Assembly (NCBI GenBank): GCA_017542475.1
Contig: JAFXXD010000024.1
Coordinates: forward strand, 1,097 to 65,096
From: Ruminococcus sp.
Lineage (GTDB): Bacteria; Bacillota; Clostridia; Oscillospirales; Ruminococcaceae
DNA length: 64,000 nt
Direction of reading: 5' to 3'
Shown here: in pieces, positions 1,116-14,719 of the stretch
How positions within the stretch are numbered: the first letter of the stretch is position 1
Layout of the letters: every line of letters starts with the position of its first letter
The notes under the pieces: model-generated
Told to the model about the DNA's origin: nothing
The model's database searches: none
Seen by the model: only the letters and a program-made list of their open reading frames with translations
Translations under genes and position numbers: made by a program

Positions 1116-2102
1116 TTATTCTTCGTTCTTCTTTTCCTTCTTGTCTTTCTTGTCTTTGCTCTCGCTGCCCTTCCACCATGACCATGTTACAGGTGCTACG
1201 AAGAGCGATGAGTAAGTACCCGAGATAAGACCTGCCATAAGCGGTACAGAGAAGCTGAGAAGCGAATTGTAGCCGCTTACGAGAACTACTATCGTTACTA
1301 CCAGCATTGTGCCGATAGTCGTGATAGATGTTCTTATCGAACGTGTGAGAGACTGCGAGCAGCCCGTATTGATGAGCTCGCTGAGCGAAGCCTTGGGCAT
1401 GAGCGTTCTGTTCTCACGGATTCTGTCGTAGATTACGATAGTGTTGTTGATCGAGTAACCGAGTATCGTGAGGATTACCGCTACGATGTTAGAGTTGAAC
1501 TCGAAGCCGCATATAATTGATACCGCAAGGGCAACCAGTATATCGTGGCAGAGTGCGAATATCGAGCATACACCCGCCGACCAGCCGCCTATCTTGCTGA
1601 ATCTGATAGCGATGTAGATGATTATGATGACAGCCGCAAATACCATTGCAAGCAGGCACTTCAGCAGGAACTCACGTCCCGATGAAGGGCTGACATCGTT
1701 CGAGTCGAAGAGCTCGAGCTCGTTGTCGGGGAATGCCTCGCGGAGCTTTTCGGTCAGCTCGTGCTGTCCGTCTGCGTTGAGACCCTCATTCGATGTGAAC
1801 GAGACGGTTATCTGGTAGCCGTCGGAATCGAGGCTCTCGCCGCGTCTTACGCTTACGTTTGAGTTAACGAGCTTCTCTACCTCTGCATCGACATCGTCGG
1901 TGCTGAGGTCGCCCGTGTAGGAGTAGGTCAGCATTGTGCCGCCCTTGAATTCGATAGCGAACTTTACGCCTCTGATGAGTGCTCCCGCGATGAGTGCGAC
2001 TACTACGCATACCGCGATGATGAGTATCATTTTCTTCTTTGAACAGAAGTCGTATACCTTTCCTGTCACTACAGGAGCTGTGTTTGTCTTTTTCTTGCTC
2101 AC
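1116..2102 (-). CDS. secF: Protein translocase subunit SecF
   Basis: IEFKGGT motif, GYSINNTIVIYDRIRE, LTRSIRTSITT; GTG start overlaps the secD stop. Confidence 0.95.
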   Translation of the reverse strand: MSKKKTNTAPVVTGKVYDFCSKKKMILIIAVCVVVALIAGALIRGVKFAIEFKGGTMLTYSYTGDLSTDDVDAEVEKLVNSNVSVRRGESLDSDGYQITVSFTSNEGLNADGQHELTEKLREAFPDNELELFDSNDVSPSSGREFLLKCLLAMVFAAVIIIIYIAIRFSKIGGWSAGVCSIFALCHDILVALAVSIICGFEFNSNIVAVILTILGYSINNTIVIYDRIRENRTLMPKASLSELINTGCSQSLTRSIRTSITTIGTMLVVTIVVLVSGYNSLLSFSVPLMAGLISGTYSSLFVAPVTWSWWKGSESKDKKDKKEKKNEE

Positions 2103-3508
2103 TTCTGATCACCTCCGTAAAGCTTTCTGTTTGTCACGAGCTTGGAAAGTGATGTGACCATAAGTCTCGAAGCGAATACTCCGAAGATGAAGTTGCAGAT
2201 AACGCCTGCGAGGAGCGTGAAGCCGAATGAGTAAACAACGCCCTCGGCTGTTGCGCCGAACATAAAGAATATCGTTCTGTTGAGTATCTTCGAGAAGAAG
2301 CTCGAAGGTACGCCGAACGCGCCCATAAGGATTATCGCGATGATAACGTTTGTGATGTTGCCGTCGAGGATAGCTGTGAACGCTCTCTTATAGGCTACGC
2401 TGATAGCGGAGTCGAGCGACTTGCCCGAGCGGAGCTCTTCCTTGATGCGCTCGCCTGTGATGATGTTGGCGTCAACGCCCATACCTACGGCGAGGATGAT
2501 ACCTGCGATACCGGGAATAGTCAGCGTCGAGCCGGGCTGGAATCCGAACCAGCCTGTTACAGCCGCGATAGAGCCTGCTACCTGTCCGATAAGAGCTATA
2601 ACAGCTACGAAGCCGGGGATACGGTAGAGAACTATCATATATACTGCGATGAGTGCGAATGCTATGTAAGCCGCAAGCAGGATAGCGTCGAGCGAGCCCT
2701 CACCCATTGTAGGCGAGATGGTCTTGAAGCTCTTGGTCTCTATCTTGAAGGGAAGCGCACCTGAATTGATCTGGTCGGCGAGCTTCTTTGCGCTCTCGCT
2801 GGTGAAATTGCCTGTGATGACAGCGTTTCCGTCCGAGATAGCGGAGCTTACCGTAGGAGCGGATATCATCGTGCTGTCCATCCATATCGAGATAGGTGTG
2901 GACGAGCCTGCAAGCTCGAGAGTAGCTGCTGCGAACTTGTCCTTGCCCTCGCTGTTGAGCTTGAGGGTAACTACCCACTCGTAGTTGCCTGTAGAATCGG
3001 GCTGCTGAGTGTATCCTGCGGACTCGATATCGGAACCGCTTATTACGAGCTCGCCCGAAGGAACAGCGTTGCCGTCCTCGTCGGTAGTGGTATCTGTGCC
3101 CTTTCTGAATGTGAGCTCTGCCATTTCACCGAGCTCCTTAACAGCGGCTTCGGGGTCGAAATTGCTCTCGCCCGCCTGCCACGGGAAACGTACTATGATT
3201 CTGTCGCTCTTGCCGTCGCTGTAGAGCTCGTTATCGTTGATTCCGAGCGATGCGAGACGAGTCTTGATTACCTCGGTAGCTGCGTCGAGCTGCTCATCGG
3301 TAGCGTCGTAGTCGCCCGCAGGAGCGAAGGTAACGTCAACGCCGCCCTTGATGTCGATACCGAGACGGATATCGTCCACGCCCTTTATCACCGTTGTCTT
3401 GTTGTCAGCATAGAGATAATCAAATCCTGTGACAGCCGAAACGGCGAACAGCGCGATCAAAGCAACGACGATGAAGAAAGTGGATTTACCTGTCTTTTTC
3501 ACGGTCAT
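2099..3508 (-). CDS. secD: Protein translocase subunit SecD
   Basis: LGIDIKGG, GALP, ISPTMG, GMGVDANIITGERIKEE and AILDGNIT motifs; GGAGG RBS. Confidence 0.95.
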   Translation of the reverse strand: MTVKKTGKSTFFIVVALIALFAVSAVTGFDYLYADNKTTVIKGVDDIRLGIDIKGGVDVTFAPAGDYDATDEQLDAATEVIKTRLASLGINDNELYSDGKSDRIIVRFPWQAGESNFDPEAAVKELGEMAELTFRKGTDTTTDEDGNAVPSGELVISGSDIESAGYTQQPDSTGNYEWVVTLKLNSEGKDKFAAATLELAGSSTPISIWMDSTMISAPTVSSAISDGNAVITGNFTSESAKKLADQINSGALPFKIETKSFKTISPTMGEGSLDAILLAAYIAFALIAVYMIVLYRIPGFVAVIALIGQVAGSIAAVTGWFGFQPGSTLTIPGIAGIILAVGMGVDANIITGERIKEELRSGKSLDSAISVAYKRAFTAILDGNITNVIIAIILMGAFGVPSSFFSKILNRTIFFMFGATAEGVVYSFGFTLLAGVICNFIFGVFASRLMVTSLSKLVTNRKLYGGDQK

Positions 3509-4060: not shown

Positions 4061-4471
4061 TTATTTGAAGTGCTTCTGTGATATTTTCAGACGGTTCATC
4101 GCACGGTTCAGTGCTGCCTGCGTCTCGTAATACTCGCGTATGCTCTGCTTCTGGCGCATCTGCTCCTCCGCACGCTCGCGGGCCTCCTCGGCGCGCTTGA
4201 TGTCTATCTCCTCGGGCAGCTCGCACGAATCTGCCAGTATTACCGCCCTGTCGGGCATTATCTGTATGAAGCCCTCGGATATCGCGGCATAGTGCCACTC
4301 GCCGTCTATCATATATTTCAGCTCGCCTGTCGGGAGCGACGTTACAAGCGGCTCGTGTCCGGGAAGTATTCCGAGAAGTCCGTCTATCGCGGTTATGACA
4401 AGGTGCTCAACATCGCCCTTGAAGAATACTCTGTCCGTGGCGATTATCTCAAGGTAGAAGGTCTTTGCCAT
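4061..4471 (-). CDS. atpC: F1Fo ATP synthase subunit epsilon
   Basis: LGILPGHEPLV, ISEGFIQI, EEIDIKRAEEARERAE; last gene of the atp operon. Confidence 0.97.
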   Translation of the reverse strand: MAKTFYLEIIATDRVFFKGDVEHLVITAIDGLLGILPGHEPLVTSLPTGELKYMIDGEWHYAAISEGFIQIMPDRAVILADSCELPEEIDIKRAEEARERAEEQMRQKQSIREYYETQAALNRAMNRLKISQKHFK

Positions 4472-4475
4472 AGGC

Positions 4476-5987
<1,512 letters not shown>

Positions 5988-6896
5988 TCATTTGTTAAGC
6001 GAAGCCGCGCCGCCGCAGACCTCCGTTATCTCCTGAGTTATTGCCGCCTGACGTGCGCGGTTGTACATCAGTGAGAGGTCGTGTATCATTTCCTTGGCGC
6101 TGTTCGTGGCGGCGTCCATTGCCGTCATTCGCGACTGCTGCTCGCAGCAGAACGCCTCGACCATTGCGCCGTAGATTATGCCCTTTGCATAGTTCGGGAT
6201 AAGGTACTCCATTACCTTCTCGGGCGACGGCAGGAATGCCGCCTTCGGCAGCTTCTTCATCGTGCCGTCGGGAGCCTTGCCGAAATGCCTTCTCTCGAAC
6301 GGCAGCAGGCGAACCGTGCGGGTCTCCTGAAGGTTCGAGTTTATCATATCCGTGTAGAGCACATATACCTCGTCGAGCTCGTGCTGCTCGAACTTTGCTA
6401 TCACGCGCTCGGCTATCTCCTTGGCGCGGTAGAGAGTCGGGTTCTGCGTGGTGTACAGGAACTCGCCGTCAACTGCCGCATTTCCGCCCGAATTCATACG
6501 GCGCTGGAAATACATACGTCCTACCTGTCCGATGACGAAGAGGTAGCAGTTGTCTATATCGGGAGCCTCCGCGAGGGTCTGCTCAGTGTATTTGAGGATA
6601 TTGTGGTTGTAGCTTCCGCACAGTCCCTTGTCCGCCGTTATGACGATATAGCCCTTCTTGCGCTTCTCGTCGGGTATGTCGGAGCGCCTGTCGAAGAAGA
6701 GCTGGCGCGTGTGCGGAGTGTGCTCGAGGACGTTCTCGATGGTCTCCTGTAATTTATAGAAGTAGGGCTCGGTGGAATCGAGCGCCGTTCTCGCCTTTTT
6801 CAGCTTTGACGAGGATATGAGATACATCGCGTTGGTTATCTTCAGTATCTGCTGTATGCTCGCTATCCTCTCGCGTATCTCTCTGATATTGGGCAT
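5988..6896 (-). CDS. atpG: F1Fo ATP synthase subunit gamma
   Basis: KITNAMYLIS, ITADKGLCGSYN, SRMTAMDAATNSA, YNRARQAAITQEITE. Confidence 0.98.
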   Translation of the reverse strand: MPNIREIRERIASIQQILKITNAMYLISSSKLKKARTALDSTEPYFYKLQETIENVLEHTPHTRQLFFDRRSDIPDEKRKKGYIVITADKGLCGSYNHNILKYTEQTLAEAPDIDNCYLFVIGQVGRMYFQRRMNSGGNAAVDGEFLYTTQNPTLYRAKEIAERVIAKFEQHELDEVYVLYTDMINSNLQETRTVRLLPFERRHFGKAPDGTMKKLPKAAFLPSPEKVMEYLIPNYAKGIIYGAMVEAFCCEQQSRMTAMDAATNSAKEMIHDLSLMYNRARQAAITQEITEVCGGAASLNK

Positions 6897-6907
6897 AGAC
6901 TCACCCC

Positions 6908-8935
6908 TTACTCCTCGAACGCGGTAACGATGCGCTCGATACGCTCGCCGAGGTCGTCGGTCATGACCTTGTTCTCCTCAATTTCGGAGATGATGTCCTG
7001 TCCGTAGGACTCGATGTACGTCATAAGGTCGTTCACGTACTCCCTCAGCTCTGAGAGCGGCGTGTACTCGAACAGCCCGTGCTGTGCCGCGTACAGCAGT
7101 ATTACCTGCTTATAGTGGGGCATCGGGTTGTAGAGCGGCTGCTTGAGCAGCTCCGTGAGCATACGTCCGTGAGCGAGGAGCTCTGCCGTGGACTGGTCGA
7201 GCTCGGACGAGAACTGCGTGAATATCTCCATTTCCTTGAACTGGGCAAGGTCGATACGGAGATTTCCCGCCGCCTTCTTCATAGCCTTGGTCTGAGCTGC
7301 ACCGCCGACACGCGATACGGAAAGTCCGTAGTTTACGGCGGGGCGCTGTCCCGAATTGAACAGCTCGCTTTCGAGGAATATCTGTCCGTCGGTTATGGAG
7401 ATCACGTTTGTCGGGATATATGCCGAAATATCGCCCGCAAGTGTCTCGATTATCGGGAGCGCGGTCAGCGAGCCGCCGCCGTGCTCGTCGTCGAGGCGGC
7501 TCGAGCGCTCGAGCAGTCTCGAATGGAGGTAGAATACGTCGCCGGGGTAGGCTTCACGTCCCGGGGGACGGTGCAGCAGCAGCGACATCGCGCGGTAGGC
7601 TACGGCGTGCTTGGAGAGGTCATCGTACACGATGAGGACGTCCTTGCCCTTCGACATAAAGTATTCAGCCATCGCCGTGCCCGAATAGGGGGCGATATAC
7701 TGGAAGGGAGCCTGATCGCTCGCAGAGGCGCAGACTACGACCGTATAGGGCATAGCTCCGAACTTCTTGAGCATATTCACTACCTGCGCCACTGTCGAGG
7801 ACTTCTGTCCGATAGCGACATAGACGCAGATGACGTCCTTGCCCTTCTGATTTATAATGGTATCAATGGCGATAGAGGTCTTGCCCGTCTGTCTGTCGCC
7901 GATTATGAGCTCACGCTGTCCTCTGCCTATTGGGAACATCGAGTCGATAGCGAGGATACCCGTCTGGAGCGGCACGCTTACGGGCTTGCGCTCGATAACG
8001 CCCGGAGCCTCGCGCTCTATCGGGAAGTAATCGTCAGCGCGGATAGGTCCGAGACCGTCGATAGGTGCCCCGAGCGCGTCAACTACTCTGCCGAGGAGCT
8101 CGTCGCTCACACCTATGCCTGCTCTCTTGCCTGTGCGGACTACCGTCGAGCCCTCGGAAAGTCCCGAATCGTCGCCGAGAAGTACGACTCCGACCGACTT
8201 TTCCTCAAGGTTCTGAACTATGCCGCGTATGCCCGTCTCGAACTCCACGAGCTCGCCGTACATAACGCCGCTCATGCCGTATACAGTGGCGATACCGTCG
8301 CCGAGCCTTGTTACGTAGCCCGTCTCGGTCGCACCGTTCTTGACCTCGAAGTCCCTGACCTCGGTCTTGAGCACGGATATGATGTCGCCCGAGGTGAGCT
8401 TCTCCTTGCCGCTCTCGGCGACCTCTGCCGCCTTGGTCTGCATAAGGTCGCGCATTGCGCGGAGGCTCGTGCGGTAGCTGCGGTCGTACTCGACGTCGCC
8501 CGCATTGAGGATAAAGCCGCCGATGATGTCGGGGTCTTTGCGGTATTCTATGTCAACGTCGTCCTTAATGAATTTCTCCATTATGAACTTGCGCAGGTCA
8601 GCCTGCTGAGACTCGGTAAGCGGCGTCACATAGCGCACTACCGCCTTTATGCTGCCCTGCTTTTCGAGGAGTATCTCCTCGTATTCCTCAAATATCTCGC
8701 CGAGCTCGCCTATCGCGCCGTCCCTTACTGCCGTAGACATAAAGCGTTCGAGGCTCGCGGGGAAGAGCTGCTTGATGATATTGTGCTTCTCGTCGTATGT
8801 AACGAGGGGATTCGAGAGCGTATCCGCCACGTCGGGACAGGTCTCGATGACCGTTCTTGCGGCATTGATGTCCTCGCGCTGTATGTCGAGGCGGACAAGC
8901 TCCTTCACAAGAGCCTTATCTGTATCCTTCATCAC
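6908..8935 (-). CDS. atpA: F1Fo ATP synthase delta-alpha fusion protein
   Basis: aa 1-165 are delta/OSCP-like ([34 protein letters not shown]); alpha begins at about aa 179 ([35 protein letters not shown]); there is no stop between them and no separate atpH. Confidence 0.93.
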
Positions 8936-9938: not shown

Positions 9939-10679
9939 TTACCTCCGTGAAGTTGCGGCTTTTTTAGCCTTTTTCAGTTTTTTTCCGCCGTGTTCCTCTT
10001 CCTCCATTGCCTCTGTCATATACAGTGTGGTGAGGAATACGAATATATAAGCTTGGAGAAGTCCGTCAAATATGTCGAAGTAGGCGCTGAATATAACGGG
10101 TACTCCGATAGCGGGGACTCCGATGACTGTCGTGAAGGCGAGCTTTATCAGCTCCATTACTACGAATGCGCCGAGGACGTTTCCGAAAAGTCGCATACAC
10201 AGCGACAGCGGACGCGTGACAAGGTCGAGCACGTTTATCGGGTTGAGGAAGCTCTTCAGCCATTTCAGCGGTCCCTTCTCTATGATGAATGACAGCTGCA
10301 CGAATATGATGGCTATCCCCGCAAGCGCCGCCGTGACGTTGATGTCCTTCGTCGGCGGTACGAAGCCGAACAAGCCCATAAGGTTCGCAAAGGCTATGTA
10401 GATTATCAGCGTTTCGAGGAAGGAAAGGTATTTCCTGCCCTTTTCTCCGAGTATGTCGAGGAAGAGCTTATCCAGCCAGCCGACGATACCCTCGATTATG
10501 CACTGCTTGCCCGTGGGCACCTTTTTCAGCCCGTGGGTGAATATTATCGACAGCAGTACGACCACTGCCATTATTATCCACGTTACCACACACGATTCGG
10601 CGATGGGTATGTCCAGACCGAACAGATGCAGCGTAAAGGCGGTATGGTTTTCGAGCCCTTCCATCAGCTCTTCTGCCAT
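9939..10679 (-). CDS. atpB: F1Fo ATP synthase subunit a
   Basis: PPTKDINVT, RPLSLCMRLFGN (essential Arg), LLQAYIFVFLT; start reassigned to MAEELMEG. Confidence 0.96.
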   Translation of the reverse strand: MAEELMEGLENHTAFTLHLFGLDIPIAESCVVTWIIMAVVVLLSIIFTHGLKKVPTGKQCIIEGIVGWLDKLFLDILGEKGRKYLSFLETLIIYIAFANLMGLFGFVPPTKDINVTAALAGIAIIFVQLSFIIEKGPLKWLKSFLNPINVLDLVTRPLSLCMRLFGNVLGAFVVMELIKLAFTTVIGVPAIGVPVIFSAYFDIFDGLLQAYIFVFLTTLYMTEAMEEEEHGGKKLKKAKKAATSRR

Positions 10680-10846
10680 TATAACACCCTCTTTCATCCT
10701 TAAAAATAATAAACGGAGACTGCGTGCGTGCATATCTCCGTTGATAAGTCAGCAATAGCGGTATGCAAAGTCTGTATCGGACCGCATATTCCGATACTTA
10801 TATAATATAACAAAACTTTAACAAAGTCAATACCTTTGTGGAAATT

Positions 10847-11212: not shown

Positions 11213-12175
11213 TTACACGCCCAATGATGTTCCGTAGTTGCTGAGCTTCTGTCTCCACCAGCCGAGCGTGTCGGAGATAGTTTGCTCCATTGTTATCGCT
11301 GCCTGCCAGCCCGTGTCGGCGTGTATCTGCGAGACATCGGGCTCGATTATCGGTATGTCCGAGGCTCTCATACGGGCGGGGTCCTGTGTGACGGTGATGT
11401 CGGCGTCCGAGAAGCCGAGCGCCGTGTCGAGGATGTACTGTATCTCCACGGCTTTTCCGCGCCCGATATTGTAGACCCTGCCGCCTATGCCCTTTTCCGC
11501 GAGCAGGCGGTATGCCCGCACGACGTCGCGGACGTCCGTGAAATCGCGCATTGCCGAGAGGTTGCCCACCTTCATCTCGGGCGGACGCATACCCTTCTCT
11601 ATCTCCGCGATCTGTCGGCAGAAGTCGGAGATAACGAAGATGTCGCTCTGCGCGGGTCCCGAGTGGTTGAAGGCGCGGACCATTACGATGTCCATTTTGT
11701 ACGCGCGGACATATATGCGGCTTATCATCTCCTGACAAGCCTTCGTCGCGGCGTAGATATTGCCGGGGTTGAGGGGCTCGTCCTCGCTGAGGGGGCACGC
11801 TCCCTCGCGAATGAAGCCGTATTCCTCGCCCGTGCCTATCATTATCAGGCGGATATCCTTCTTCTCGGCGGCTCTGACGGCTTCGAGCACGTTTATCGAG
11901 CCGATGACGTTTATCTCCGCGGTGAGCTGGGGCTTCTTCCACGACACCGCTACCGAGCTCTGCGCCGCGAGGTGGAATATCACGTCGGGAGCGACCTCCG
12001 CTATCAGCGCGGAGATGTCCTCGATTCGCAGTATATCGAGGGTGTGCGGCGTGCAGTCCGCTGTTATCTTCTCGGACGGCAGACAGGTGGCATGTACCTC
12101 CGCGCCCGCCGATGTCAGCTCGCGGATAAGGTAGCCTCCCACGAAGCCCGCTCCGCCGATTATCAAAGCTTTCAT
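11213..12175 (-). CDS. rmd: GDP-4-keto-6-deoxy-D-mannose reductase (Rmd-like extended SDR)
   Basis: GGAGFVG, HLAAQSSV, YAATK, RAFNHSGPAQS..FVISDFCRQIAEIE; sits beside gmd and manC. Confidence 0.75.
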   Translation of the reverse strand: MKALIIGGAGFVGGYLIRELTSAGAEVHATCLPSEKITADCTPHTLDILRIEDISALIAEVAPDVIFHLAAQSSVAVSWKKPQLTAEINVIGSINVLEAVRAAEKKDIRLIMIGTGEEYGFIREGACPLSEDEPLNPGNIYAATKACQEMISRIYVRAYKMDIVMVRAFNHSGPAQSDIFVISDFCRQIAEIEKGMRPPEMKVGNLSAMRDFTDVRDVVRAYRLLAEKGIGGRVYNIGRGKAVEIQYILDTALGFSDADITVTQDPARMRASDIPIIEPDVSQIHADTGWQAAITMEQTISDTLGWWRQKLSNYGTSLGV

Positions 12176-12188
12176 ATTGTGTCCTCGC

Positions 12189-13310
12189 TTATTCTGACAG
12201 GAAGTCATAGAGCTTCCTGATTATATCCTTTTCGTTGAAGTCGTGCTTTACGCGGTAGGCGGCGTTCTTGCCGAGCTTATCGCGCAGGGGCTTGTCCTCC
12301 GCGAGCCTGTTTATCGCCGCCGCCAGCGCCTTCGGGGACGAGGGCGGGACTGTCAGTCCCGTCACGCCGTGCAGGCTGACGTGCGGTACTCCCGACGGGA
12401 GCGACGTATTTATGACGGGCTTGCCGTAGACCATAGCTTCAAGCTGTACGATACCGAATGCCTCGCTCTTCACGACGGACGGCAGCACGAAGATGTCGCA
12501 GTCCGCATACGCCTGCTTCAGCTCGTCGTCGGGCAGGAAGCCGAGAAAATGCACCTTGTCCGAGAGCCCGTGCGTGTCGGCGTAGCGCCTGAGACCCGCC
12601 TCAAGCTGTCCCGTTCCCGCGATGAAGAGCTCGCAGCCGCGCACGTTGCGGAATGCACGCAGGAGCACGTCCACGCCCTTGTAGTAGACCAGCCTGCCCG
12701 TGAAGAATACCTTCACGGCGCTCTTGTCGGTGAGCTTTTCCGTGAGGAAGGGCTTGCGCTCTATGCTCAGGTACTGTGCAGGGTCGATACCGTAAGGGAG
12801 TATGCGGCACTTTTCGCGGAACTGCGGCAGCACGTCCGAGCCGTCGATGTGTCCCTGCGTAGCCACGAATATAATGTCTGCGCGGCGGAGCAGGTACATC
12901 ATAAAGGGCTTGTAGAAGAGCATGAGCTTCTTCTGCTTGACGATGTCGCTGTGCCACGACACCGCGACCTTTCCCCTGTAGCCCGACACCAGCAGAGCCG
13001 CGTCCGCAAGAGGGAAGGGCACGTTGATGTGCACCGCGTCGGAGCGCTTTGCCATCTTCCTGAACAGGTGCACGAACGACAGCGATATCGGGCAGGACAT
13101 AAGCGTCCCGAAGCTGCCTGCGCGTGTGAGCCCGACGCCGTTCATTTTCTCGTGAATGGTCGTGCCTGTGTCGTCGCGGCAGACGAGGGTCCTCACCTGT
13201 GCGCCGAACTGTCCGAGCTCCTCCGAATACTGTCTGACAAGGCTCTCAATGCCGCCGATATGCGGGTAATAAGCCTTGTTGACCTCCAGTACCCTGAACT
13301 GTCTTCCCAT
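12189..13310 (-). CDS. GT4 glycosyltransferase (WbpZ-like)
   Basis: GGIES, GRLVYYKG, SEAFGIVQLEAMVYGKPVI (EX7E motif). Confidence 0.9.
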   Translation of the reverse strand: MGRQFRVLEVNKAYYPHIGGIESLVRQYSEELGQFGAQVRTLVCRDDTGTTIHEKMNGVGLTRAGSFGTLMSCPISLSFVHLFRKMAKRSDAVHINVPFPLADAALLVSGYRGKVAVSWHSDIVKQKKLMLFYKPFMMYLLRRADIIFVATQGHIDGSDVLPQFREKCRILPYGIDPAQYLSIERKPFLTEKLTDKSAVKVFFTGRLVYYKGVDVLLRAFRNVRGCELFIAGTGQLEAGLRRYADTHGLSDKVHFLGFLPDDELKQAYADCDIFVLPSVVKSEAFGIVQLEAMVYGKPVINTSLPSGVPHVSLHGVTGLTVPPSSPKALAAAINRLAEDKPLRDKLGKNAAYRVKHDFNEKDIIRKLYDFLSE

Positions 13311-13573
13311 TACTTGACTATCCCGTTTTCGCGGCAGTAGTCCATAATGAACTTCTGCATATCTATGCCTGCCGCCTTGCCGAGATCCATCAGCTCAAGC
13401 GTGCGGTCGATGAAGTCCTGATCGGATTCGAGGGTGTCTGCAGCGAGGCGCTGTATGAATTCGGGGATATAGCTCTCCATCTCCATTCGGAACTCGTCCT
13501 CAGCCGTGAGGAAGCACGTGAAGTCCTGCTCCTTCGGCTTCTCAGCCTCGTTGTTCTTTATCTCTTCGCTCAT
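13310..13573 (-). CDS. Hypothetical acidic protein, 87 aa
   Basis: Translationally coupled on both sides within the operon; host-like codon usage. Confidence 0.7.
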   Translation of the reverse strand: MSEEIKNNEAEKPKEQDFTCFLTAEDEFRMEMESYIPEFIQRLAADTLESDQDFIDRTLELMDLGKAAGIDMQKFIMDYCRENGIVK

Positions 13574-14719
13574 TTATATCAGCTCCTTGTAAATATCGTA
13601 AAGCATTTCTGCCGAAGCGTCCCATGTGAACTGCTTTGCGCGTTCAAGTCCGCGGACGCTGAGCTCGCGGCGGAGCTCCTCATCGCTGTAGAGCCTTTCG
13701 AGCCCGTCAGCTATGCTCTCCTCGGAGTATGCGTCGCATATGACAGCGCAGTCGCCCGTTACCTCGGGGAGTGAAGCCGCATCGGACGCGAGCACGGGTA
13801 CTCCGCTCGCCATAGCTTCAAGCGGCGGCATACCGAAGCCCTCGTATATCGACGGAAACACGAATGCGAGCGCTCCGCACATGAGCGGGTTCATATCCTC
13901 GGCGGGGACGTATTTCGTGAAAATGACCTGCGCCGTCAGTCCGAGCTCGGTGACGCGCGCGAATATGCCGTCGTACAGCCAGCCCTTGCCGCCCGCGAGG
14001 ACGAGCTTGGGCGCGTCCTTGTGGTGCTGACAGAAGATGTGGTACGCGGAGATGAGCCTTTCGAGGTTCTTGCGGGGCTCTATCGTGCCGACGTAGAGGA
14101 AGTATTCGCCCTCTATGCCGAGCGATCCCTTCACCTGCGGGATACGCTCGGGCTCGGTGCAGGGCTTGAACTTTTCAAGGTCAACGCCGCACGGCACCAC
14201 GCGTATCTTTCCCTCGTGCATGGGGAAATACTTGATTATCTCGCTCTTCGAGAACTCCGAGTCCGTGACTATCATATCAGCCCGCTTCATCGACTGCTTC
14301 AGTCCCGTATTCAGCATTATCTTTGTGCGTCCGCGCACTGTCTCGGGGAAAGCCTTGTAGACCATATCGTGCACGGTGACTACCGTGCGCCCGTGGACTC
14401 CCGGCGGGACGATGTAGTTGAAAAAGTGCGAAACATCGGCGTCCCTGCCGAAGAAGAAGCTGTAGGGGAACGGCGCGAGAGTCGAAGCCGCGCGGTACAT
14501 ATAGCCCGAGAAGTGTACGAGCTTGGTGCCGATGTTATCGCCCGTGAAGGGAGCGATGCGCTCGAGCTTTATGTGGTCGTCCGTGCGCGAGAAGAAGTTG
14601 TAGGTGTAGGTGTTCTCGGGGTGGAGACGCGCCATAGCCATTGTCTGTCCCGCCTCGCACCAGCCTATGCCCGTGATACGGTCGCTGATGAGCGGTAATG
14701 CGTCAAATGCGATATTCAA
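13574..14719 (-). CDS. GT4 glycosyltransferase (MtfB/WbpY-like)
   Basis: TVHDM, YVGTIEPRKN, PSIYEGFGMPPLEAMASGVPV. Confidence 0.92.
   Translation of the reverse strand: MNIAFDALPLISDRITGIGWCEAGQTMAMARLHPENTYTYNFFSRTDDHIKLERIAPFTGDNIGTKLVHFSGYMYRAASTLAPFPYSFFFGRDADVSHFFNYIVPPGVHGRTVVTVHDMVYKAFPETVRGRTKIMLNTGLKQSMKRADMIVTDSEFSKSEIIKYFPMHEGKIRVVPCGVDLEKFKPCTEPERIPQVKGSLGIEGEYFLYVGTIEPRKNLERLISAYHIFCQHHKDAPKLVLAGGKGWLYDGIFARVTELGLTAQVIFTKYVPAEDMNPLMCGALAFVFPSIYEGFGMPPLEAMASGVPVLASDAASLPEVTGDCAVICDAYSEESIADGLERLYSDEELRRELSVRGLERAKQFTWDASAEMLYDIYKELI

Follow-up and report, generated by a model that had tools for sequence, protein, structure and literature searches.

The number of peripheral stalks of an ATP synthase, and hence the number of proton paths, sets its H+/ATP ratio, which is a basic bioenergetic constant. 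In the stretch of DNA analysed here (64,000 nucleotides from a rumen/gut Ruminococcus whose genome assembly of 2.66 Mb is 94% complete; hereafter, the window), the delta subunit, whose C-terminal domain is the b2-binding part in known enzymes, appears in one open reading frame with the alpha subunit. The question that this locus raises is whether such a fused gene is real and, if so, how many deltas and how many stalks an F1 head built from it would have.

The minus-strand ORF 6908..8935 has 675 codons without any stop and encodes a complete delta/OSCP subunit, a linker and a complete alpha subunit (Table 1). Regarding the delta part, the OSCP profile (PF00213) matched aa 16-163 over its full length (positions 19-170 of the 172 in the profile) with a score of 94.7 bits (gathering cut-off 22.3), and the fused protein aligned with residues 20-173 of the delta of Bacillus PS3. 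In the alpha part, ATP-synt_ab_N (PF02874, aa 204-269), ATP-synt_ab (PF00006, aa 326-541) and ATP-synt_ab_C (PF00306, aa 548-673) were each above their cut-off, the Walker A motif GDRQTGKT was found at residues 346-353, and solved alpha chains were matched with E-values down to 3.5e-202 (9nvl_A). The start of the gene is likely ATG 8932 rather than GTG 8935, which gives a protein of 674 aa, because this ATG overlaps the stop of atpF (TGATG), has GGAGG upstream and agrees with the homologues, which begin with MKD or MRD. Instead of being a separate polypeptide present once per F1, the OSCP delta is fused in frame to the sole F-type alpha of the genome, and no second OSCP match was found in this 94% complete genome. 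The original prediction of a delta-alpha fusion in one 675-codon frame without a stop was therefore borne out by the ORF reading and the Pfam matches; the linker translates as it had been described, and a separate atpH is indeed absent.

Table 1. Features of the atp operon in the window, from the upstream promoter-like site to the last gene, with the fused gene divided into its parts (aa numbers are those of the 675-codon frame).
Feature	Position	Strand	Evidence and remarks
Promoter-like site TTGACT-17-TATTAT upstream of atpB	10802..10830	-	10/12 consensus matches; pattern match only
atpB, Fo subunit a	9939..10733	-	Pfam ATP-synt_A, 3.2e-40
atpE copy 1, c subunit, 75 aa	9705..9932	-	Pfam ATP-synt_C, 2e-19
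atpE copy 2, c subunit, 75 aa	9457..9684	-	Pfam ATP-synt_C
atpF, single b subunit, 162 aa	8932..9420	-	Pfam ATP-synt_B, 1.8e-25
Delta N-terminal domain, aa 2-93	8657..8932	-	OSCP profile from 19; AF2 six-helix bundle
Delta C-terminal domain, aa 94-165	8441..8656	-	OSCP profile to 170; AF2 four strands and helices
Linker, aa 166-181 (16 residues)	8393..8440	-	Relic of the old SD/stop/start; low pLDDT
Alpha proper, aa 182-675 and stop	6908..8392	-	Three alpha/beta Pfam domains; N-terminal helix 182-195
atpG, gamma	5988..6896	-	Pfam ATP-synt, 5.6e-93
atpD, beta	4476..5945	-	Pfam match
atpC, epsilon with C-terminal helical domain	4061..4471	-	Pfam ATP-synt_DE_N and ATP-synt_DE

For the structure of the fused chain we used an AF2 monomer model of moderate confidence built from a diverse alignment (mean pLDDT 72, pTM 0.59), which replaced a poor earlier model obtained from 117 close homologues (mean pLDDT 47.9). 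It predicts the two-domain fold of delta (pLDDT 64-86), that is, six helices in the N-terminal domain (residues 4-16, 20-32, 34-41, 47-57, 60-71 and 75-92; pLDDT 70-86) followed by four strands and two helices. The packing of three deltas is outside the scope of such a monomer model.

The operon has the order a-c-c-b-(delta-alpha)-gamma-beta-epsilon (atpB-E-E-F-(HA)-G-D-C), with alpha in its expected position between atpF/atpH and atpG, and GGAG(G) is found upstream of the starts of c, b, the fused gene, gamma and epsilon. For atpD, the true start is probably located around 24 codons inside ORF 4476-5945, because the alignments with homologues begin at residue 25 and GTG 5945 has no SD in front of it. 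The two c genes encode identical proteins, differ by 8 synonymous bases and have a GGAGGT ribosome-binding site each. One congener (L002) and the unfused sisters L033 and L040 likewise have c genes in tandem, and this duplication is thus found with or without the fusion. The motif for Na+ coupling, as in Ilyobacter tartaricus (Q32, E65 and S66), is a Gln in helix 1 and a Ser/Thr beside the carboxylate in helix 2. The c subunit of the window has Ile and Ala at the positions that we align to Q32 and S66 and keeps Glu, Thr and Tyr, which hints that it may be H+-coupled.

Regarding the surroundings, the operon is flanked downstream by SecDF (2099-3508, minus strand) and upstream by a NAD-dependent sugar epimerase/dehydratase and two GT4 glycosyltransferases (11213-14719, minus strand), all of them apparently unrelated to it. 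Elsewhere in the genome we found a V/A-type ATPase operon (C55:52472-58957, outside the window) with an I subunit of 658 aa, an A-like frame of 601 aa and a B-like frame of 461 aa, which means that the fused F1Fo is not the only rotary ATPase encoded. RnfD/E-type genes are present on contigs C2 and C37, and a search for an H+-pyrophosphatase in the same genome found none.

A fused frame such as this one could result from a frameshift introduced in sequencing or assembly, or could be a decaying pseudogene. The original prediction had proposed a search of related genomes for the same fusion, and we found the same fused frame, with OSCP inside an open frame of at least 660 aa, in around 70 of the 81 species genomes of the genus (a count taken from the tabulated frames), together with 3-4 further fused frames that end at contig edges. 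A homologue search with the delta domain as the sole query gave close fragments only. With the fused protein, 1789 database relatives were obtained, and the best 120 of them include 117 full-length proteins (673-676 aa, with all four Pfam domains) that are named Ruminococcus flavefaciens or Ruminococcus sp., some of them appearing as 'Multifunctional fusion protein' in UniRef. These genomes and proteins come from independent assemblies and therefore refute an artefact. Furthermore, dN/dS is 0.03-0.14 across all the domains of the fused gene, and its alpha is the only F-type alpha of the genome, which argues against a pseudogene. We leave practically no probability to an artefact or a pseudogene, and the fusion is confirmed as a genuine, old, constitutive and genus-wide trait.

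In eight species of the genus (loci L041-L048) the fused operon coexists with a second one of canonical type, whose delta (179 aa) and alpha (497 aa) are separate. These species offer a natural comparison of both enzyme types within one cell.

Beyond the genus, most of the 201 genomes sampled in the family have a separate delta of around 180 aa, and a second type of operon has a delta of 167-168 aa with deletions of 7 and 4 residues in the N-terminal domain. In the same sample, full-length fusions were found in two further lineages, and there are many frames of 582-608 aa, often in a second operon, in which a delta devoid of its N-terminal domain is fused to alpha (deltaDeltaN-alpha). One intermediate form of fusion and one b-deltaDeltaN-alpha complete the family sample. 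Among the 399 sampled genomes of the class we found at least 8 other fusions of full-length size and around 21 of deltaDeltaN size, with no stop at the junction. Most deltaDeltaN-alpha fusions form a separate clade on the alpha tree, and thus the fusion of the window is an independent event. To judge from this tree, delta-alpha fusions need to have arisen independently at least two to three times.

Other rearrangements of the same genes were also observed. A 742-aa frame (L013:4548-6776, minus strand, genome G160) comprises around 160 N-terminal residues, OSCP positions 100-172 and a full alpha, and looks like a b-deltaDeltaN-alpha triple fusion. In a sister genus (G173; L040:6039-6806, minus strand) there is a separate delta of 255 aa with one N-terminal and two C-terminal domains, seen as two OSCP stretches, which is another route to more b2-binding domains. 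In L033, from the other genome of this genus, delta is a normal one of 167 aa. The c ORFs of 125-160 aa in deltaDeltaN operons were considered as possible double-hairpin c subunits, and this was rejected because Pfam detects a single ATP-synt_C domain in them; an over-called start probably accounts for the extension.

The origin of the fusion can be followed on the alpha tree, where the window and two congeners (support 100) adjoin the unfused L033 and L040 (support 97), and where the fused clade is nested in a 97-supported clade of operons with mostly short deltas (167-168 aa). These unfused short-delta operons (L033-L037 and L040) have the alpha, beta and delta sequences closest to those of the window, share with it the 7- and 4-residue N-terminal deletions with respect to the usual 180-aa delta and, in some cases, have tandem c genes as well. 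However, their delta ends in GGAGGTGA, an element that holds both the SD and the stop, and a separate alpha starts with ATG or TTG 5-12 nt downstream. In the fused genes the linker starts with AAEV, and these four residues are what the GGAGGTGA element gives in the frame of alpha (the window has GCG GCA GAG GTC), which means that delta joined this frame immediately before the old SD. Both the core of that SD and the former start codon of alpha have decayed in the fused genes, and across the genus the linker has 8-22 residues, is hydrophilic and varies in both length and sequence.

We therefore suggest, on the basis of this comparison, that an indel at the 3'-end of atpH may have brought delta into the atpA frame, upstream of GGAGGTGA. 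Translation would then cross the old SD/stop element and the former alpha start, giving one delta-linker-alpha chain of 74 kDa. With respect to alpha, the delta of one unfused sister is in the +1 frame and that of another is in the same frame with two stops; the comparison does not single out the mutation behind the fusion.

A genuine fused frame could still lead to a canonical mature enzyme if, once translated, internal initiation or proteolysis of the linker yielded free alpha (and delta). A flexible, hydrophilic and variable linker would indeed be accessible to proteases, and the window has two in-frame candidates for an internal start, Met161 and Met165. However, neither of them is preceded by an SD, as had already been pointed out in the original prediction, and both are ancestral delta residues that are not conserved. 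That prediction had also raised the production of a normal alpha from an internal start as an objection to itself. In the 11 fused genes that we inspected, the region from 30 codons before to 12 codons after the point where alpha homology begins has no in-frame ATG, GTG or TTG with an SD-like sequence in front of it, and 2 of the 11 have no start codon at all in this region. Therefore, with no SD or start codon near the junction, internal initiation was rejected. The decay of the old SD and the old start codon after fusion points in the same direction, and no conserved cleavage motif was found in the linker. All in all, a release of free alpha by either route seems to us improbable.

Since the fused delta-alpha is the only F-type alpha and the only delta, and has no conserved internal start, we strongly infer that each F1 head would carry three complete delta domains instead of one, as had been proposed from the window, so that the head would be (delta-alpha)3 beta3 gamma epsilon. 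The evidence base for the fused chain and this stoichiometry is sequence and predicted structure; in the literature that we searched there were no proteome or structure data from Ruminococcus for the fused subunit, nor a later structure of any natural fused enzyme.

Among the known systems that come closest there is an engineered one, the Bacillus PS3 delta-alpha fusion with extra stalks that the original prediction had mentioned. Ueno et al. (Nat Commun 2025; PMC12229609; PDB 9JC1) fused residues 105-178 of PS3 delta to alpha and, with the other subunits wild-type, obtained enzymes that had between one and three stalks and a subunits. H+/ATP was 5.8 vs 3.0 in the wild type, and the threshold pmf was halved. 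[quoted passage not shown]

9JC1 was the top Foldseek match of our AF2 model and one of the top sequence matches, and residues 94-669 of the window protein are colinear with residues 2-572 of 9jc1_I in a single alignment (3.8e-188). The two chains share the succession of delta C-terminus, short linker and alpha N-terminus, and both place the b2-binding C-terminal domain of delta on every alpha. Nevertheless, the engineered chain is without delta residues 2-104, whereas the window protein keeps the N-terminal domain and differs in this from the deltaDeltaN class. Furthermore, the natural linker is 7 residues longer than that of 9JC1, and epsilon is full length in the window while it is truncated in the construct. 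The natural deltaDeltaN-alpha fusions (D2RLW6, G4Q3K6, A0A1I2C5T3 and many that we found in Clostridia) are joined in the same way and at the same place in the operon, and the family to which the window belongs has them too, often in an additional atp operon; however, they have no N-terminal domain, their frames have 582-611 aa and OSCP is matched from around position 96-112. Natural delta-alpha fusions are anticipated in the literature, but only in the form that lacks the N-terminal domain.

Two other natural enzymes are relevant for the comparison. The F1Fo of Chloroflexus aurantiacus (PMC12002316; PDB 9ITJ) has two stalks and two deltas, each with an N- and a C-terminal domain, these deltas being separate 157-aa proteins whose four-helix N-terminal domains dimerise. 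It resembles our case in being natural, of F-type and provided with more than one two-domain delta per head, and its delta was among the sequence matches. In contrast, the window delta is fused instead of free and its N-terminal domain is predicted to have six helices; on this AF2 prediction a Chloroflexus-like four-helix domain was rejected. On the other hand, the mycobacterial b-delta fusion (9vkp_d), also a sequence match, is a natural fusion of delta with the product of a neighbouring atp gene, but it keeps one delta per enzyme, whereas the delta-alpha fusion changes one to three.

In order to know how selection acts on each domain, we calculated dN/dS pairwise, taking for the fused clade the three closest pairs, in which dS is not saturated. 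In this clade the N-terminal domain had a dN/dS of 0.13-0.14, the C-terminal domain one of 0.03-0.05 and alpha one of 0.03-0.04; for the unfused canonical operons of the same genus the respective values were 0.07-0.17, 0.07-0.28 and 0.01-0.07. The ratio of the C-terminal domain dN to the alpha dN was 1.3-1.6 in the fused genes vs 3-5 in the unfused ones, and the rate of the N-terminal domain relative to alpha was similar in both sets. A decaying N-terminal domain was therefore rejected, given its dN/dS of around 0.14 and its unfused-like rate relative to alpha. Judged by these substitution rates, the constraint on the C-terminal domain is now alpha-like, after a roughly threefold tightening that followed the fusion, which fits a fixed, cis-docked part of every alpha. 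The shift in constraint alone is silent on how many C-terminal domains hold a stalk.

Regarding the assembled enzyme, each C-terminal domain of delta would most likely be docked in cis, on the N-terminal helix of the alpha to which it is fused, in the manner of 9JC1; this is suggested by the colinearity with that chain and by the alpha-like constraint. The unchanged purifying selection argues that the N-terminal domain keeps a function, and the simplest would be the canonical one, with one copy capping the crown on the symmetry axis. The enzyme would then be mainly an H+-coupled F1Fo with one canonical stalk, and the two remaining deltas would stay tethered as spare anchors. This is the explanation that we prefer, namely a genuine genus-wide fusion with three deltas per head and mainly one canonical stalk, and we see the chances for and against it as roughly balanced. 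Some observations speak against a single stalk. The PS3 deltaDeltaN-alpha recruited extra b2 and a with otherwise wild-type subunits, and by analogy the spare C-terminal domains might do likewise here; with two idle copies, the roughly threefold tightening of the C-terminal domain would not be expected; and Chloroflexus has two deltas on one head that bear N-terminal domains.

The same observations support a natural multi-stalk F1Fo, in which all three tethered C-terminal domains would bind b2 and have an a subunit each, and the three N-terminal domains would pack as a new crown cap or swing aside. The window protein is colinear with the engineered chain, whose H+/ATP is raised, from residue 94 on; the C-terminal domain is alpha-like in constraint in the fused clade only; and architectures that multiply this domain recur in the family and class, as deltaDeltaN-alpha, as b-deltaDeltaN-alpha and as a delta with two C-terminal domains. 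Two deltas go together with two stalks in Chloroflexus, and the presence of Rnf fits low-energy ion cycling. However, the domain that the engineers removed for its axial position is retained and conserved here, and its predicted six-helix form is not the dimerising four-helix form of Chloroflexus. Furthermore, the operon has one a gene and one b gene, the same as the unfused operons, and a V/A-type ATPase is also encoded. We regard an enzyme with several stalks, including the rearranged N-terminal domains, as a possibility that is rather doubtful. As for the original prediction, the engineered precedent to which it referred does exist, but neither this precedent nor the cited Acidaminococcus fusions have the N-terminal domain that the window keeps. 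The further step, by which the fusion leads to extra stalks and a raised H+/ATP, cannot be taken from the sequence, and the conserved N-terminal domain is the published limiter to one stalk.

To what was already known of delta-alpha fusions we can now add, for this one, its origin at an SD/stop element, a sister group without the fusion, a check of possible internal starts and a shift in constraint that is specific to one domain. The genus is a natural test of the one-stalk rule, because it has the same fusion with the N-terminal domain kept; close relatives that are unfused or without this domain can be used as controls, and several members of the genus are culturable, including Ruminococcus flavefaciens strains. 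If the enzyme has one stalk, the N-terminal rule of Ueno et al. would be confirmed. If it has more, the published inference that the N-terminal domain fixes the stalk number at one would be contradicted, and H+/ATP would rise two- to threefold, well above the known range of 2.7-5 and in a culturable bacterium, allowing ATP synthesis at a low pmf or proton pumping against it. Several stalks would be a new way for fermenters to fit their ATP synthase to weak ion gradients.
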